In this document: positions 18,062 to 60,440 of the stretch, piece after piece
Layout: each line of letters opens with the position of its first letter
Position numbering within the stretch: position 1 is the stretch's first letter
Source of the DNA: Candidatus Levybacteria bacterium RIFCSPHIGHO2_01_FULL_40_16
GTDB lineage: Bacteria; Patescibacteriota; Microgenomatia; Levybacterales; UBA12049
Reading direction: 5' to 3'
DNA: 64,000 nt
Assembly: GCA_001783805.1 (NCBI GenBank)
Contig: MFNS01000001.1
Coordinates: 192,649-256,648, forward strand
Made by a program: the position numbers and the translations under genes
Notes under the pieces: generated by a model
Told to the model about the DNA's origin: nothing
The model's database searches: none
The model's input: only the letters and a program-made list of their open reading frames with translations

Positions 18062-18453
18062 GATTGCTTAGTATATCAGAAAAATCTTTTAGTAAAATTA
18101 GTTATTGACAACCAATGTTATTTTTTGCATAGTATATTTATGGCAAAGAAAAAAGTCACTAGAAGATCTTCAAAGAGTCTCTTTCAAACAAACCCAAATT
18201 TAAAGTGGTTGCTTCCCTTGTTTATTCTAGCCTACTGGCTAACTACAGTTATAAAATAATATCTCAAGAGTACTTCCGTTCCCAATATTGATTAAATTAT
18301 TCCGCAGAATTAGAGTTTTCTCTCGAATAGGATTTTGTATGCCCGTTGTGTACCGCCATGGGGATTCGAACCCCCTCCCAATTTTAGCGCTCGGCTTTTC
18401 AGAACTATTCGTTTACGCTTCGTGCTGCCCGGAACGTTAATTTTGGCCTTTTG

Positions 18454-19632: not shown

Positions 19633-19757
19633 GTTTTATTTCACCTCCTTTTTACCCGCCGCTCAAGTGCCCTTTGCGACGTGTTCGAATAGAACTGAAA
19701 AGTCGCAAAGTAAACTTAGGCGGGCCTTTGATCTTATATTATGCAGTTTAACTTCCC

Positions 19758-19786
19758 TTGTCAAGAGATTAGAGTATTGTTATAAT
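19758..19786 (+). promoter_or_regulatory. sigma70 promoter of tRNA-Lys
   Basis: TTGTCA-17bp-TATAAT with TG extension. Confidence 0.65.
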
Positions 19787-19824
19787 TAGACATTGCACAG
19801 CATCCTTAATTCTGCTTTGCAGAA

Positions 19825-42039: not shown

Positions 42040-43941
42040 ATGAACAATTTAACATCGGATAAAATTAGAAATATCGCGGTTATTGCGCACGTTGACCACG
42101 GAAAAACTACGCTTGTAGATTTCATGCTCAAGCAGTCCCATACCTTCCGCGAAAATGAAGCGGAAATGACTCAAACTACTATTCTTGATTCAAATCCCCT
42201 GGAAAGAGAGCGGGGCATTACTATTTTGGCCAAAAATACCGCAATAAATTACAAACCTGCCCGCAATGCTTCGCCCGCCGGCATGCCTTCGGCAAAGCCG
42301 ATGGCGGCCAGGCAACACGATGCAGGCGGGGACTACAAAATTAATATTATAGATACTCCGGGGCACGCGGATTTTTCAGGGGAGGTTGAAAGGACTCTCA
42401 ATATGGCAGACGGAGCGCTTTTGATTATTGATGCGTTGGAAGGACCGATGCCGCAAACTAAATTTGTGCTTAAAAAAGCCCTTGGAATAGGTTTAAAAGT
42501 GATTGTTATCATCAATAAAATTGATAAAAAACTCGCAGATATTGCAGATTCTTTTGAAAAAACCAATGATTTATTTCTGGAATTGGCAACCGATTCGGAA
42601 CAATTGAACTTTCCCGTTCTCTATGCCGTAGGCCGCGAAGGAAAAGCAGCGGTAAAACTGGAAGATGTACAGGGAAGCAAAGATTTAGACCCAATTATGC
42701 AAACAATTATCAATTATATTCCGGCTCCAAAAGTTGACGCCGGCCCGTTTAGAATGCTGGCGACTGCTTTAGATTACGATACCCACAAAGGCAAACACGT
42801 CATCGGCAGAATCAGAAGCGGTACTCTGGAAAAAGGACAAACAGTGGTTTTAATTAATGCTAAAAATGAAAAAATTCCTGCCAAAATAGAAAATATTTAT
42901 ATAAACCGCGGTCTTAAAAAAGACGAGGTTGAAAAAGTGAGGGCCGGGGAAATAGTTGACATTACCGGAGTTGACAATGTGACTATCGGAGATACGATCG
43001 CAGATTCCAGCAATCCGGTTGCGCTTCCGCGAATTTCAATTGAAGATCCTACAATCAAAATTGCTATTTTTGCCAACACCAGCCCTTTTGCAGGCAAAGA
43101 GGGGAAATATTCAAATTCCCGCCAAGTCTATGAAAGGTTAGTTAAGGAATTGGAAACGAATATCAGTATGAAGTTAGAGGTTATGGAAGATAAATTTGTA
43201 GTTTCCGGAAGAGGGGAATTGCATTTGTCGGTTTTAATTGAAACCATGAGGCGCGAGGGTTATGAGTTCCAAGTTGAAAAACCGGAAGTAATTACAAAAA
43301 TTATCAACGGCGTAGAGATGGAGCCGGTTGAAGATTTAATTATTGATGTTCCGGACGAATTTCAAGGAATAATTTCAAGAGAGTTAGGAGAAAGAAGGGG
43401 ACAAATGACCAATATGGATGCTGACGGAAAAGGTAACACGCGTTTTGAATACAAAATTCCTTCCAAAAATCTTCTGGGACTGCGGAATACTTTATTAACC
43501 AACACTAAGGGTACAGCGGTAATCAATACTATGTTTGATAAATACGAGCCGTTGACGCCTGTACTTCCTAAAATCAGAAACGGTGTCTTGATTGCATCGG
43601 AACCGGGAACTGCCTTAACTTTTGGCCTGCAAAACGCGCAAGGAAGAGGCATAACTTTTATTGACCCCGGAACATCGGTTTATGAGGGAATGATTGTCGG
43701 TCTAAATACGAGAAGCGATGATATTGAAATAAATGTTGCTAAAGGAAAACACTTAACCAATATGCGGTCCGCAAATGCGGACATTGCAATTGCTTTAACT
43801 CCGCCCCTCAAAATGAGTTTAGAACAATATTTGGATTTTTTGGAAGACGACGAGCTTTTGGAGGTAACACCGAAAAGTTTAAGGCTGCGTAAAAAACTTT
43901 TGACCCGTCTTGACCGTGTTAGGGCTGCAAGAGTACAATAA
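42040..43941 (+). CDS. typA: translational GTPase TypA/BipA
   Basis: IAHVDHGKTT, ERGITI, DTPGHADF, GRGELHL and EVTPKSLRLRK motifs; 25-aa insert. Confidence 0.97.
   Translation: MNNLTSDKIRNIAVIAHVDHGKTTLVDFMLKQSHTFRENEAEMTQTTILDSNPLERERGITILAKNTAINYKPARNASPAGMPSAKPMAARQHDAGGDYKINIIDTPGHADFSGEVERTLNMADGALLIIDALEGPMPQTKFVLKKALGIGLKVIVIINKIDKKLADIADSFEKTNDLFLELATDSEQLNFPVLYAVGREGKAAVKLEDVQGSKDLDPIMQTIINYIPAPKVDAGPFRMLATALDYDTHKGKHVIGRIRSGTLEKGQTVVLINAKNEKIPAKIENIYINRGLKKDEVEKVRAGEIVDITGVDNVTIGDTIADSSNPVALPRISIEDPTIKIAIFANTSPFAGKEGKYSNSRQVYERLVKELETNISMKLEVMEDKFVVSGRGELHLSVLIETMRREGYEFQVEKPEVITKIINGVEMEPVEDLIIDVPDEFQGIISRELGERRGQMTNMDADGKGNTRFEYKIPSKNLLGLRNTLLTNTKGTAVINTMFDKYEPLTPVLPKIRNGVLIASEPGTALTFGLQNAQGRGITFIDPGTSVYEGMIVGLNTRSDDIEINVAKGKHLTNMRSANADIAIALTPPLKMSLEQYLDFLEDDELLEVTPKSLRLRKKLLTRLDRVRAARVQ
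42256..42330 (+). mobile_element. nested pair of mini-elements, in frame in typA
   Basis: Outer CCTGCCCG...CAGGCGGG (36 bp net) contains an inverted CCCGCC...GGCCAGG copy (42274-42312, 39 bp). Confidence 0.85.
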
Positions 43942-46063: not shown

Positions 46064-47056
46064 ATGAACAATCCGATTGTTAAATATTTGATTAACAACC
46101 ATTTTCTGACGGCGCTTATCGTTATAGCGCTTTTTTGGCTGGCAATTGACCTAAGTAACATCTTAATTATTATCTTTATTTCCTACATAATCATGGCTGC
46201 CTTATCTCCTTTTTCGGATTATTTAACTCAAAAACGCATTCCCAGAATCTTAGCCGCATTGATTCCTTACACAATAGCTATTGCGATATTGGTACTTTTG
46301 ATCCTTCCATTAGTGCCCCTCTTTATCTCTCAGATAGAGCTTCTTTTTAGTAATTTTCCAAAATACATTAATCAAATAGCAAATGCCCTTAATCTCAATA
46401 TTGATGCAGCCAGCGTTAAAAATGTTTTCGAATCAGATGCCAATACTCTAAGCAAAAATGTTTTGAACGTCACGGGTAAATTTTTAAGCGGTTTTTTCTC
46501 TACATTTACAGTCCTGGTCATAAGTTTTTATCTGATGCTTCAAAGAGAGATGCTTAAGAAACAATTTGTAGGCCTTTGGCCTAAAAAGAGTCAGGATCAG
46601 GTTCAAGAAACGATTGCCAGAGTTGAAGATAAGATTGGCCGGTGGCTGCGTGGACAGCTGGTTCTTTCCTTTACAATTGGTTTTTTCACCTGGGGAGGTC
46701 TAACGCTCTTCGGCTTACCCTTCGCTCTTCCTTTAAGTTTGCTGGCGGGAATACTGGAAATTGTACCGACAATCGGACCGATTATTGCCGCTATTCCGGC
46801 TGTTATTGTCGCTTTAACTATTTCTCCCGGACTTGCAATATCGGTTATATTTTTCTATATTTTAGTACAAATGCTTGAGAATCATATTCTCGTTCCGAAA
46901 ATAATGCAAAAAGCGGTCGGATTAAATCCCATTGTCATCATCATTGGAGTTTTAATAGGCAGTCATTTCATGGGAATTCTGGGAGCTCTGCTCTCTGTAC
47001 CGTTTATAGCAATGACCTTAATTATCGTTAAAAGCTTCAGGTCTTCCAATCAATAG
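46064..47056 (+). CDS. AI-2E family transporter
   Basis: WLRGQL, IVPTIGP, QMLENHILVPKIM and GLNP motifs. Confidence 0.9.
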   Translation: MNNPIVKYLINNHFLTALIVIALFWLAIDLSNILIIIFISYIIMAALSPFSDYLTQKRIPRILAALIPYTIAIAILVLLILPLVPLFISQIELLFSNFPKYINQIANALNLNIDAASVKNVFESDANTLSKNVLNVTGKFLSGFFSTFTVLVISFYLMLQREMLKKQFVGLWPKKSQDQVQETIARVEDKIGRWLRGQLVLSFTIGFFTWGGLTLFGLPFALPLSLLAGILEIVPTIGPIIAAIPAVIVALTISPGLAISVIFFYILVQMLENHILVPKIMQKAVGLNPIVIIIGVLIGSHFMGILGALLSVPFIAMTLIIVKSFRSSNQ

Positions 47057-47114
47057 CCCTTAGTTCCTCTTCCACCCTCAAGCTTGATATGCTAAAATAC
47101 TATTTAGTATCCAG

Positions 47115-47197
47115 GCTGCGGTGGTGGAATGGTATACACGGAGGCCTTAAGAGCCTCTATCCGTAAGGGTGTGTGGGTTCGACTCCCTCCCGCAGCA
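47115..47197 (+). tRNA. tRNA-Leu(TAA)
   Basis: GAGGC-CTTAAGA-GCCTC anticodon arm; long variable arm. Confidence 0.92.
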
Positions 47198-47226
47198 CTT
47201 CTGCAGAGCAGAATCTAAAGGCGTAA

Positions 47227-47502
47227 ATGTATAAAGTTTATTTATTGCATAGCCTAAAAGACACAGGGATGTCTTACGTTGGATTAACAATTAAGGAAAT
47301 AGACAAGAGAGTTGAAGAACATAATAAAGGACTATCACAATATACAAAAACATTTAAGCCGTGGAGATTAGTTTATTACGAACTTTTCTATTGCAGAACA
47401 TGTGCCGAAAAAAGAGAACAATTCTTGAAAAGTGGAGTAGGATATCAATTAAGAAAACATCTGCTTACATTTAAGAATTCTTCTTTGAAGAACGGGGGTT
47501 AG
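47227..47502 (+). CDS. small GIY-YIG nuclease; stop overlaps outer tRNA-Pro
   Basis: VYLLHS...SYVGLT...RVEEHN...AEKREQFLKSG. Confidence 0.9.
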   Translation: MYKVYLLHSLKDTGMSYVGLTIKEIDKRVEEHNKGLSQYTKTFKPWRLVYYELFYCRTCAEKREQFLKSGVGYQLRKHLLTFKNSSLKNGG

Positions 47503-47516
47503 CTCAGTTGGCTAGA

Positions 47517-47559
47517 CCTGCCCGCAATTGCCTGGAGCCGATAGCGACTGGCAGGCGGG
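47517..47559 (+). mobile_element. empty 43-bp mini-element in D-arm of outer tRNA-Pro
   Basis: CCTGCCCG...GGCAGGCGGG. Confidence 0.85.
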
Positions 47560-47572
47560 GCGCGCGGTTTGG

Positions 47573-47681
47573 CCCGCCTGACTTGAAATGACGGGGTGTA
47601 GTTCATCGGTAGAACGCTCGGTTTGGGACCGAGAAGCAACAGGTCCAATTCCTGTCACCCCGACAAGTCATTTCGGGCAGG
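47573..47681 (-). mobile_element. 109-bp tRNA-Pro-carrying mini-element in anticodon loop
   Basis: CCCGCCTGACTTG...[tRNA]...CAAGTCATTTCGGGCAGG. Confidence 0.85.
47592..47663 (+). tRNA. inner tRNA-Pro(TGG)
   Basis: CGGGGTG...CTCGG-TTTGGGA-CCGAG...ACAGG-TCCAATT-CCTGT...CACCCCGA. Confidence 0.88.
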
Positions 47682-47777
47682 GACCGTGAGGTCGGAGGTT
47701 CAAATCCTCTACCCCCGACCAAGTTGAGTTTTTATGTGCTAAAATTGAAGTAGTTTACTTCGGATAATTAAAGCGGG

Positions 47778-47812
47778 CCTGCCCGCCGAAGTTCCGAAGG
47801 AACGTAGGCGGG
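47778..47812 (+). mobile_element. empty 35-bp mini-element whose end regenerates the tRNA-Gly 5' end
   Basis: GCGGG|CCTGCCCGCCGAAGTTCCGAAGGAACGTAGGCGGG|TGTAG. Confidence 0.8.
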
Positions 47813-47878
47813 TGTAGTTTAATGGCAGAACACGACTTTTCCAAAGTCGATACGAGGGTTCGATTCCCTTCACCCGCT
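47808..47878 (+). tRNA. tRNA-Gly(TCC)
   Basis: CGACT-TTTCCAA-AGTCG anticodon arm; GCGGGTG/CACCCGC acceptor. Confidence 0.93.
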
Positions 47879-48018
47879 CAGACACGAAAGGTATTGACAT
47901 ACTCCGATATATATGTCTTACTAGTATAAAGACCCGCCAACGCTCGCGTTTCGGCCTTCGGCTCGACGAAGTTAGTCTACGGCCAGACGAAGTCGGCGGG
48001 CAAGAAGGAGGTGATAAC

Positions 48019-48204
48019 ATGAAAACGCTTCAGCAAATAGCAAATGTACTCGTCATCGTAGGAGCACTCAATTGGGGATTGGTCGGACTTTTTAGTTATA
48101 ATTTGGTCGAATCTCTTTTGGGTGGACTTGGACTTGCCCAAATAACATACATTTTGGTCGGTTTATCCGGCGTATTGGCATTGGTAAACTGGGGAAAAAA
48201 GTAA
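48019..48204 (+). CDS. DUF378 family small membrane protein
   Basis: LVIVGALNWGLVGLF...YILVGLSG; SD AAGGAGGTGA. Confidence 0.88.
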   Translation: MKTLQQIANVLVIVGALNWGLVGLFSYNLVESLLGGLGLAQITYILVGLSGVLALVNWGKK

Positions 48205-57987: not shown

Positions 57988-58041
57988 CTTGTGGACTCTA
58001 GAGGATTTGAACCTCTGACATCTTCGATGTAAACGAAGCGC

Positions 58042-58150
58042 CCGGCCTGACTGGACTTTGTGGACCCGAGAGGATTCGAACCTCTGACCTTCTCAGTGTA
58101 AATGAGACGCTCTACCAACTGAGCCACGGGTCCATTCAAAGTCGGGCAGG
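58042..58150 (-). mobile_element. 109-bp tRNA-Val-carrying mini-element in D-arm
   Basis: CCTGCCCGACTTTGAAT-[tRNA]-CAAAGTCCAGTCAGGCCGG. Confidence 0.85.
58061..58133 (-). tRNA. inner tRNA-Val(TAC)
   Basis: GGACCCG...TCTCA-TTTACAC-TGAGA...GGTTCGAATCC...CGGGTCCA. Confidence 0.93.
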
Positions 58151-58196
58151 TCTACCGCTGAGCTAAGAGTCCAGGGTGGACTTAATGATGTCCAGA

Positions 58197-60123: not shown

Positions 60124-60156
60124 AAGTATAAATTCTTAGTGCCCAGGGGGAGATTC

Positions 60157-60198
60157 CCTGCCCGCCATCAGCTGTCGCCTCAGGCGACTGCAGGCGGG
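60157..60198 (+). mobile_element. empty 42-bp mini-element in T-loop of outer tRNA-Leu
   Basis: CCTGCCCGCCATCAGCTGTCGCCTCAGGCGACTGCAGGCGGG. Confidence 0.85.
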
Positions 60199-60242
60199 GA
60201 ACTCCCAAGCCCTTGCGGACACAGCGTTCTGAACACTGCATG

Positions 60243-60351
60243 CCCGCCTGCCAGAGTGCCCCAAGAGGGACTCGAACCCTCACGTCCTTGCGGACACAGC
60301 GTTCTGAACACTGCATGTCTACCATTCCATCATCGGGGCACGGCGGACAGG
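60243..60351 (-). mobile_element. 109-bp tRNA-Leu-carrying mini-element in D-arm
   Basis: CCTGTCCGCCGT-[tRNA]-CTCTGGCAGGCGGG. Confidence 0.85.
60257..60339 (-). tRNA. inner tRNA-Leu(CAG)
   Basis: GCCCCGA...CAGTG-TTCAGAA-CGCTG...GGTTCGAGTCC...TTGGGGCA. Confidence 0.92.
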
Positions 60352-60440
60352 TCTACCATTTCATCACCTGGGCGCATGTTGATTTTACCAGAAGCAGTTT
60401 TACTTGACAACAATGACAAAAAATGCGATTATGATAGACA

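Follow-up and report, generated by a model that had tools for sequence, protein, structure and literature searches.

Can one tRNA gene take the place of another from within? A proline locus of the groundwater bacterium Candidatus Levybacteria bacterium RIFCSPHIGHO2_01_FULL_40_16 raises this question. There, a whole tRNA-Pro(UGG) gene lies inside another tRNA-Pro(UGG) gene, which is broken into three pieces. The locus occupies positions 47493-47721 of the window, that is, of the whole stretch of 64,000 nucleotides that we analysed (C1:192649-256648). The genome (G000) has 0.90 Mb in 7 contigs, with a completeness of 98.87% and about 38% G+C, and ARAGORN finds 45 tRNA genes in it. An organellar or archaeal source of the window was considered at first and rejected, because this genome is bacterial. 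The outer tRNA-Pro is probably the original gene, hit by two copies of a short hairpin element. The tRNA brought by the 109-bp copy would now do the decoding, and the interrupted outer gene (the shell) would be a recent pseudogene. The parts of the locus are the following.

47493-47516, + strand, 24 nt: shell piece 1, with the acceptor 5' strand, the D-stem 5' strand, the D-loop, and the first two bases of the D-stem 3' strand.
47517-47559: 43-bp "empty" GC-rich hairpin element, CCTGCCCG...CAGGCGGG, at tRNA position 23/24, without target duplication.
47560-47572, + strand, 13 nt: shell piece 2, with the D-stem remainder, position 26, the anticodon stem 5' strand, and the loop up to the anticodon UGG.
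47573-47681: 109-bp cargo element with flipped termini, CCCGCCTG...CGGGCAGG, in the anticodon loop; it holds a leader and a trailer that pair and a whole tRNA.
47592-47664, + strand: inner tRNA-Pro(UGG), without encoded CCA (ARAGORN; Rfam, 64.2 bits).
47682-47721, + strand, 40 nt: shell piece 3, with position 37, the anticodon stem 3' strand, the variable loop, the T-arm, the acceptor 3' strand, the discriminator, and CCA.

Joined together, the three pieces make a tRNA-Pro(UGG) of 77 nt with an encoded CCA. ARAGORN and Rfam detect only the inner tRNA-Pro(UGG) at this locus, and the intron mode of ARAGORN reports no shell. The scripted exact removal of both elements at their CCTGCCCG/CAGGCGGG ends gives a 77-nt tRNA-Pro(UGG) that ARAGORN recognizes. 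A preliminary description, made from the letters of the window, had drawn the same anatomy: an outer tRNA-Pro with two inserts in opposite orientation, and with stems and CCA intact. The excision agrees with it. Likewise, the first insert does lie at 23/24, and the second, given there as about 36/37, is one of three equivalent writings (34/35, 35/36, or 36/37) because of a run of G at the junction. The absence of CCA from the inner tRNA is also correct. The termini of the two elements point in opposite directions (CCTGCCCG..CAGGCGGG in the 43-bp element, CCCGCCTG..CGGGCAGG in the 109-bp element); despite this, the inner tRNA is co-oriented with the shell. The limits of shell piece 1 are based on the sequence, the excision test, and the uninterrupted orthologues of three relatives (G005, G003, and G004). 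The terminal 9-mer occurs 6 times in the window versus 0.15 expected (40-fold), and therefore not by chance.

The nest is confirmed as real, with no assembly artefact. DNA contigs from four runs of four studies cover positions 47440-47596 or further with 0 differences. In addition, one metagenome contig (L193) holds the whole locus, contiguous and identical. The runs were compared as contigs: X20 is RNA, X15 and X16 are labelled RNA-Seq and are probably DNA, and X1, X2, X3, and X12 were also included. The minimum-energy fold of the locus has -106.8 kcal/mol (z -3.98), and the flanks of the inner tRNA pair in it through AAAUGA/UCAUUU. The flank pairing proposed earlier, TGACTTG/CAAGTCA, is possible too. 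However, the two pairings are mutually exclusive, and the minimum-energy fold of the precursor does not use the proposed one.

The relatives indicate the direction of events. In G005, which belongs to the same genus and has the same locus and neighbours, the outer tRNA-Pro is uninterrupted. The outer gene is also uninterrupted in G003 and G004 of the same genus, where it abuts the tRNA-Leu. We take this to be the ancestral state. G006 shows the end state: it has only the inner type, directly 3' of the tRNA-Leu and followed by a scar of the element right end, with no shell. The shell shows 1 difference in 75 positions from the intact gene of G003 and 3 in 77 from that of G005. The intergenic DNA just downstream of the locus has 12 differences in 80 from G005. 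We read the shell as young rather than maintained. The preliminary description had offered either recent insertion or selection for a spliced product. The first option, insertion with rescue, is favored by the uninterrupted genes of G005, G003, and G004, by the likeness of the shell to G003, and by the 2 differences in 109 bases between this cargo and that of G210. Elsewhere the shells are being lost. Val-UAC shells lack the 3' part in G001 and G002 and the 5' part in G006 and G008, and in G003 the gene is a chimera of shell and cargo. Pro shells are truncated in L203, L194, and L195.

ARAGORN and Rfam detect no intact UGG proline tRNA gene in this genome other than the inner one. The T-loop of the inner tRNA is TCCAATT, as the preliminary description had noted. 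The word "atypical" used there does not hold: T-loops of the TCCRATT type are also present in un-nested tRNAs of this genome (Ile-GAU, Gln-UUG, Thr-GGU, and Met), and therefore it is a trait of the lineage and not a defect. The inner tRNA type stands free in genomes of other families. Across 7 genomes, 4 of its 23 pairs show compensatory changes; the inner type is therefore a genuine tRNA lineage under selection. The genome also has a CCA-adding enzyme family. Judging from these genes, the inner tRNA is likely functional and now does the proline UGG decoding.

The cargo element is not exclusive to this genome. G210, from another genus, has the same element at the same site, with the 2 substitutions mentioned. 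Around it, shell piece 3 has 7 differences in 40 positions, the D-arm insert is unrelated to the 43-bp element, and to the left of the cargo the identity extends for 13 nt only. The same cargo skeleton appears in 11 metagenome contigs, which include this locus and two duplicate pairs. Their tRNA-Pro cargos are of several kinds, and by eye the anticodons of cargo and shell agree, UGG with UGG and CGG with CGG. These contigs have intact D-arms, and several have lost the shell or the element right end. In other carriers of the same cargo, the D-arm is either intact or interrupted by a different insert. The 43-bp copy is therefore a separate and lineage-specific event, in agreement with the two independent inserts of the preliminary description. 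We conclude from the sequence comparison that the cargo element is in all likelihood horizontally mobile and that it seems to have entered resident genes that had already diverged. A phage origin of the cargo was also considered and rejected, with 0 matches of its left junction in viral_contigs.

Is the proline locus a single case? Exact excision in the same genome restores Pro-UGG, Val-CAC, Val-UAC, and Leu-CAG shells, each with the anticodon of its cargo. The Val(UAC) nest lies on the minus strand at about 57991-58172 of the window, with the cargo at the shell D-arm and another GIY-YIG open reading frame (ORF) after it. The Leu(CAG) nest, also on the minus strand (window about 60138-60373), has its cargo at the shell D-arm, and the T-loop of its shell holds a second, empty copy of 42 bp. 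Thr-UGU, Cys, Ala, Asp, Asn, Glu, and two Arg genes of the genome show nests or relics that come from other element types or from GIY-YIG cassettes. In the case of tRNA-Asn (C7:98780-99330), the shell encloses a cargo made of a GIY-YIG gene and an intact tRNA-Asn. A duplicated shell piece with the same 40-bp element flanks this cargo on both sides, and the layout is common to two genera (also G049:C14, L041).

We searched 245 genomes of the order for cargo elements, with element ends 84-112 nt apart. The search gave 69 cargo-sized matches in 48 genomes, and the reversed control gave 0. We analysed 68 of them; the excluded one (C4:20620 in G000) is without a tRNA. A tRNA is present in 53 of the 68. 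For 29 of these 53, a single exact excision leaves an intact shell with the same anticodon. In 5 (L128, L134, L138, L156, and L159) the anticodon left is another one or unassignable. The remaining 19 give no intact shell; many of these, judged by eye, combine cognate halves with another insert or with a truncation. In 34 of 34 cases, cargo and shell run in the same direction. The anticodon-loop heptamer of the cargo is found on the same strand in the joined flanks of 40 of the 53. For the opposite strand the figure is 1 of 53, and for the controls 20 of 2624.

Some nests are not cognate. A Val-CAC cargo element occupies a Thr-CGU shell in G049:C37 (L138), at the same D-arm word, and the same element resides in Val-CAC shells of G013 and G157. 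In G026:C5 (L134), a Val(GAC) cargo is found in a shell that ARAGORN calls Ile(GAU). Judging from these two cases, the element can probably insert into genes other than the cognate one.

The cargo copies belong to a larger family of hairpins. The genome has 33 copies with at most 1 terminal mismatch, 13 of them with exact ends. Of 121 genomes sampled from the order, 49 have exact-ended copies, with a maximum of 22 in one genome, and the reversed pattern gives 0. Eleven of the 33 copies are situated in tRNA genes, shells, or relics, which by our estimate represent about 0.5% of the DNA. So tRNA genes are strongly over-represented as sites, empty copies included. The insertion is without target duplication, as the exact excision of four tRNAs in this genome and of 29 across the order indicates. 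Three hot spots were recognized in tRNA genes. One follows GGTAGA in the D-arm, another is on the 3' side of the anticodon, and the third is TTC|GA in the T-loop. The GGTAGA site is used in Pro, Val-UAC, Leu-CAG, and Arg genes of this genome, and in Val-CAC, Leu-UAG, and Ala-GGC genes elsewhere. Empty copies at tRNA genes of this genome are confined to shells or relics, with the exception of tRNA-Gly(UCC). We looked by eye for a guide pairing between leader and target and saw one doubtful case only, at Val-CAC.

Most subfamilies are 33-45 bp long and most are multiples of 3 order-wide. The clear-ended copies within long ORFs measure 30, 33, 36, 39, 48/60, or 75 bp, all of them multiples of 3. 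The longest is found in BipA (window 42256-42330), where a 39-bp element is nested in a 36-bp element, in frame and with 75 bp in total. It adds 25 residues beside the G3 motif, between conserved motifs of the G domain. E. coli BipA lacks this insert, and so do 5 of the 5 closest orthologues (86% identity). From their reading frames, the elements in proteins are evidently translated through.

How does this family compare with known systems? Rickettsia palindromic elements are short, palindromic selfish DNA found in frame in protein genes and also in RNA genes. The likeness consists of many copies, tolerated by read-through, and of in-frame insertion in conserved proteins. Compared by description, the present elements differ in their smaller size of 30-45 bp, their hosts of the Candidate Phyla Radiation (CPR), their strong preference for tRNA genes, and the copies with a whole tRNA gene as a substitute for the one that was hit. 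With REP/REPIN-RAYT systems and the hairpin miniature inverted-repeat transposable elements (MITEs) of IS200/IS605, they share non-autonomous hairpin repeats in many copies, no target duplication, and a Y1 (HUH) family that is present in the genome and commoner in element-rich genomes. Unlike REP/REPIN-RAYT loci, the copies do not flank the transposase gene, many are intragenic, and the NCBIfam score falls below its cut-off. In contrast with an IS200/IS605-type MITE, no constant target word of 4-5 nt stands 5' of the left end. No description of a tRNA passenger on REPs was found in the literature searched.

Integrative elements with tRNA genes as targets restore the displaced 3' end; they encode an integrase, and at the attachment site no more than the 3' part of the gene is duplicated. 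Like them, the cargo element enters a tRNA gene and brings a copy of the sequence with it, so that the cell is still supplied with that tRNA. However, it is an enzyme-less 109 bp with an entire, divergent tRNA, and the old gene is left in pieces. Another possible parallel is SegB of the phage T4 tRNA cluster, reportedly a free-standing homing endonuclease of "intronless homing". The similarity is the small GIY-YIG gene beside tRNA genes and the preferential inheritance of the linked tRNA allele. The Pro cargo element differs in having no nuclease gene inside.

Archaeal tRNA introns at canonical and non-canonical positions transpose between tRNA genes (Fujishima et al. 2010, as related in the meeting report PMC10714607). 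As with them, the inserts here are short, are placed in the D-arm, the anticodon loop, and the T-loop, may be several per gene, and spread among tRNA genes. Archaeal introns are removed by EndA and a ligase at a bulge-helix-bulge; here, neither enzyme was found and the host is a bacterium. Moreover, the same inserts occur in proteins and one insert carries a second tRNA. The Ssn family (CDD class cd10448) comprises small GIY-YIG single-strand nucleases with flanking hairpin repeats (PMC11893778). The likeness is in small GIY-YIG genes, presumably single-domain, beside hairpin repeats that are numerous in the genome. Conversely, the GIY-YIG genes here (Pfam PF01541) are at tRNA genes, and the published SRM motif has 0 matches in the genome versus a mean of 1.6 in 10 first-order Markov simulations. 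A link to the Ssn nuclease repeats was rejected on this motif.

In sum of these comparisons, the family appears to resemble Rickettsia palindromic elements and REP/REPIN/IS200 MITEs, and it would mimic archaeal multi-intron tRNA genes only superficially. It fails the tested defining features of EndA-dependent introns, group I introns, and classical REP-RAYT loci. In the full-text literature outside subscription journals, we found no tRNA-in-tRNA genes, no tRNA inserts of CPR bacteria, and no palindromic elements carrying tRNAs. What seems new is a hairpin element whose whole-tRNA passenger replaces the cognate gene that the element disrupts; we did not find it described in the literature searched.

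The process could be as follows. The element would move as single-stranded hairpin DNA, mobilised in trans. The candidate mobilisers are Y1 transposases of the IS200-like or RAYT-like type, or small GIY-YIG nucleases. Its preferred landing sites are tRNA genes, at a small number of hot spots, where it may target the structure or the sequence of the gene in single-stranded DNA. A hit in a single-copy essential tRNA gene would survive only if the cargo has the same anticodon and the same orientation. Cargo and shell would therefore be cognate through survivorship. After the insertion, the cell would depend on the element. The inner tRNA is presumably transcribed from the host unit (tRNA-Leu, GIY-YIG ORF, and shell), released by RNase P and 3' processing, and completed by the CCA-adding enzyme. 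The redundant shell would then be a free target for a second copy, such as the empty 43-bp one, as the carriers without it suggest. Later, the shells are truncated, deleted, or recombined with the cargo, as seen in the relatives.

The neighbours of the nest include one candidate mobiliser and one more element.

47227-47502, + strand: small GIY-YIG nuclease ORF, 91 aa (Pfam PF01541, 42.7 bits).
47778-47812, + strand: related 35-bp element fused to the 5' end of tRNA-Gly(UCC).

The GIY-YIG ORF is located between tRNA-Leu(UAA) and the Pro shell, and its final codons extend 10 nt into the 5' end of the shell. A pair of 15-nt palindromes (47199-47213 and 47478-47492), both of the form TTCTGC-NNN-GCAGAA, brackets it. 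Palindromes like these abut many tRNA genes in this genome and in its relatives G028 and G008. The cassette is absent from G003, where the tRNA-Leu and tRNA-Pro genes touch. The last five bases of the 35-bp element are the first five of tRNA-Gly(UCC), so this tRNA remains intact. The arrangement is kept in G005, and the same element lies 5' of the Pro shell in G210. Another motif, CGAATAG-NN-CTGAAAAGCC, with GC-rich arms, was observed beside tRNA-Lys(UUU) and tRNA-Glu(UUC) at about 19700-19824 and 18340-18450 of the window. In G005 it is inside a duplicated 5' piece of tRNA-Leu(CAG) (L019, C18:6690-6830). It has no Rfam match at the gathering score.

Small GIY-YIG genes number 11 in this genome, and 7 of them have a tRNA gene at a distance of 100 nt or less. 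There are also two Y1 (IS200/RAYT-like) transposase genes. One of these two, an ORF of 234 aa (C4:18486-19190), matches Pfam Y1_Tnp with 44.2 bits (cut-off 23). Its best NCBIfam match is REP_Tyr_transpos with 35.7 bits, below the cut-off of 80. As a separate observation, this RAYT-like gene is inside a ribosomal-protein cluster (L10, L7/L12, L1, and L11; C4:18486-20700). The L1 gene beside it has in-frame inserts derived from the element and is about 110 residues longer than usual. Among 121 genomes, the presence of the element goes with the presence of a RAYT-like gene (34/15/23/49, odds ratio 4.8), an association overstated by kinship. The element count correlates with the GIY-YIG count (rho 0.56) and with the RAYT-like count (rho 0.42); these values are also overstated, because the genomes are kin.

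Several observations weigh against an original gene that was overwritten by a mobile hairpin and left as a pseudogene. The shell has no decay of its own: all the stems pair, and the sole G-U pair is shared with G003. An intact shell fits a very recent insertion and continued selection equally well. The acceptor stems of the G000, G210, and G029 shells differ, and each is internally complementary. We read these differences as older than independent insertions, an order of events that is itself deduced. A consensus promoter scan of 46900-48100 found no + strand promoter, and the contigs of the sole true RNA run (X20) cover only the neighbouring tRNA-Gly. Regarding the element, the flanks of the 33 copies have no common target word, and TAGA recurs at tRNA D-arm sites only. 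Two fuzzy-ended copies, of 47 and 38 bp by our boundaries, lie in open frames. Multiples of 3 prevail in the subfamilies everywhere, which makes the in-frame test weaker than it appears. Regarding the mobiliser, no element flanks the RAYT-like gene closely; the nearest is about 400 bp away, inside the L1 gene. Finally, the GIY-YIG and RAYT-like counts intercorrelate (0.53), so the copy-number test cannot separate the two candidates.

Other explanations were weighed. In a homing cassette, a nuclease such as that of the adjacent GIY-YIG gene would cut the uninterrupted tRNA gene, and the interrupted allele, replacement tRNA included, would be copied in during repair. With the two shell halves acting as homology arms, cognate targeting would be automatic. 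The position of the GIY-YIG genes speaks for it: 7 of 11 are close to a tRNA gene, one overlaps the 5' end of the Pro shell, and one follows the Val-UAC nest. In tRNA-Asn, the GIY-YIG gene is together with an intact tRNA inside a cognate shell in both G000 and G049. Besides, five shells break after the same D-arm word GGTAGA, and the GIY-YIG count is the best correlate of the element count. Nevertheless, the Val-CAC cargo found in Val-CAC shells of G013 and G157 is in a Thr-CGU shell of G049, which homology arms would not lead one to expect. The proline cargo shared with G210 has identity for 13 nt leftward only and the divergent piece 3 on its right. Empty copies also favour tRNA genes and are also in many proteins, and the Val-CAC and Leu-CAG nests have no GIY-YIG gene nearby. 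We consider homing unlikely.

A second explanation is that the shell still works. Some bacterial splicing or trimming activity, of a kind not known so far, would remove both inserts, and one transcript would give two proline tRNAs. The exact removal of the inserts yields a flawless 77-nt tRNA with CCA, the shell is conserved like a live tRNA (the single difference from G003), and shells are intact in 29 of 53 nests order-wide. In the minimum-energy fold, each insert forms a closed hairpin that brings the exon ends together. However, the insert helices begin right at both junctions, and no bulge-helix-bulge was seen by eye. The tRNA splicing endonuclease EndA (PF01974) has 0 matches in this 98.9% complete genome, with a control search that finds it in 4 archaea; RtcB ligase (PF01139) also has 0 matches, with a control search that finds it in 10 genomes. 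The inserts are too small for a ribozyme. At the gathering score, the Rfam matches in the window are tRNA only, and group I (RF00028) is not matched. This contrasts with the initiator tRNA (C7 about 125846-126070; L025:167-371), which has a group I intron in the anticodon loop (RF00028, 67.9 bits). ARAGORN misses that gene because of the intron, the sole true self-splicing tRNA intron seen in the genome. Likewise, the same elements are in frame in proteins and evidently translated. Shells are truncated in G001, G002, G006, G008, and L203, while their cargo is still intact. On these grounds the spliced product of the preliminary description finds no support, and we take a working shell to be very unlikely. 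Skips of 43 bp and 163 bp in X15 were examined as possible splice products and discarded. They have a side of 24 nt or the letters of a relative, and correspond to intact genes of other organisms.

A third explanation is a reversible switch, in which precise excision of the DNA restores the shell, kept as a reserve gene under intermittent selection. Y1 transposases excise precisely, and the lack of target duplication, the exact boundaries, and the intact shell would suit such a switch. Against it, no empty-site allele with at least 95% likeness was seen in the four DNA runs, where the skipping contigs observed are sequence of a relative. Two separate excisions would be needed, and the shells are lost in relatives. 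It seems highly improbable. Finally, tRNA repeats often break or mis-join metagenome assemblies, and Logan contigs break inside the inner tRNA, but a chimera of two proline tRNA genes is next to impossible, given the contigs of four runs and four studies that span piece 1, the 43-bp element, piece 2, and the cargo left end with 0 differences, the contig L193 with the whole locus, and the same architecture in dozens of other genomes.

The insertion of a tRNA-carrying hairpin into an original proline gene is, therefore, the reading that we retain as probable. A broader proposal is that the cargo hairpins are undescribed, self-addicting gene-replacement transposons. Each would disable a single-copy essential tRNA gene and provide its own version instead, which the host then could not afford to lose; by moving between genera, they would drive a continuous horizontal tRNA turnover across an entire order of CPR bacteria. 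For this proposal we consider the chances to be even. A bolder version, in which the tRNA cargo itself helps to steer the element to the cognate gene, is quite doubtful. In annotation, an inner functional gene and a disrupted outer gene should be entered for such loci, and not an intron-containing tRNA. They would also be a natural example of insertion into structured DNA that is guided by hairpins, is precise as to position, and leaves no footprint.

As a rule, no part of a genome is considered more stable, or more strictly vertical in its inheritance, than the tRNA genes. If our reading is right, in these ultra-small bacteria they would be routinely overwritten from within by tiny mobile elements without enzymes. 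This would explain sister species with unrelated versions of the same tRNA, as well as the "shell" genes and relics that tRNA finders miss. In this way, a selfish element would become indispensable to its host without a toxin.

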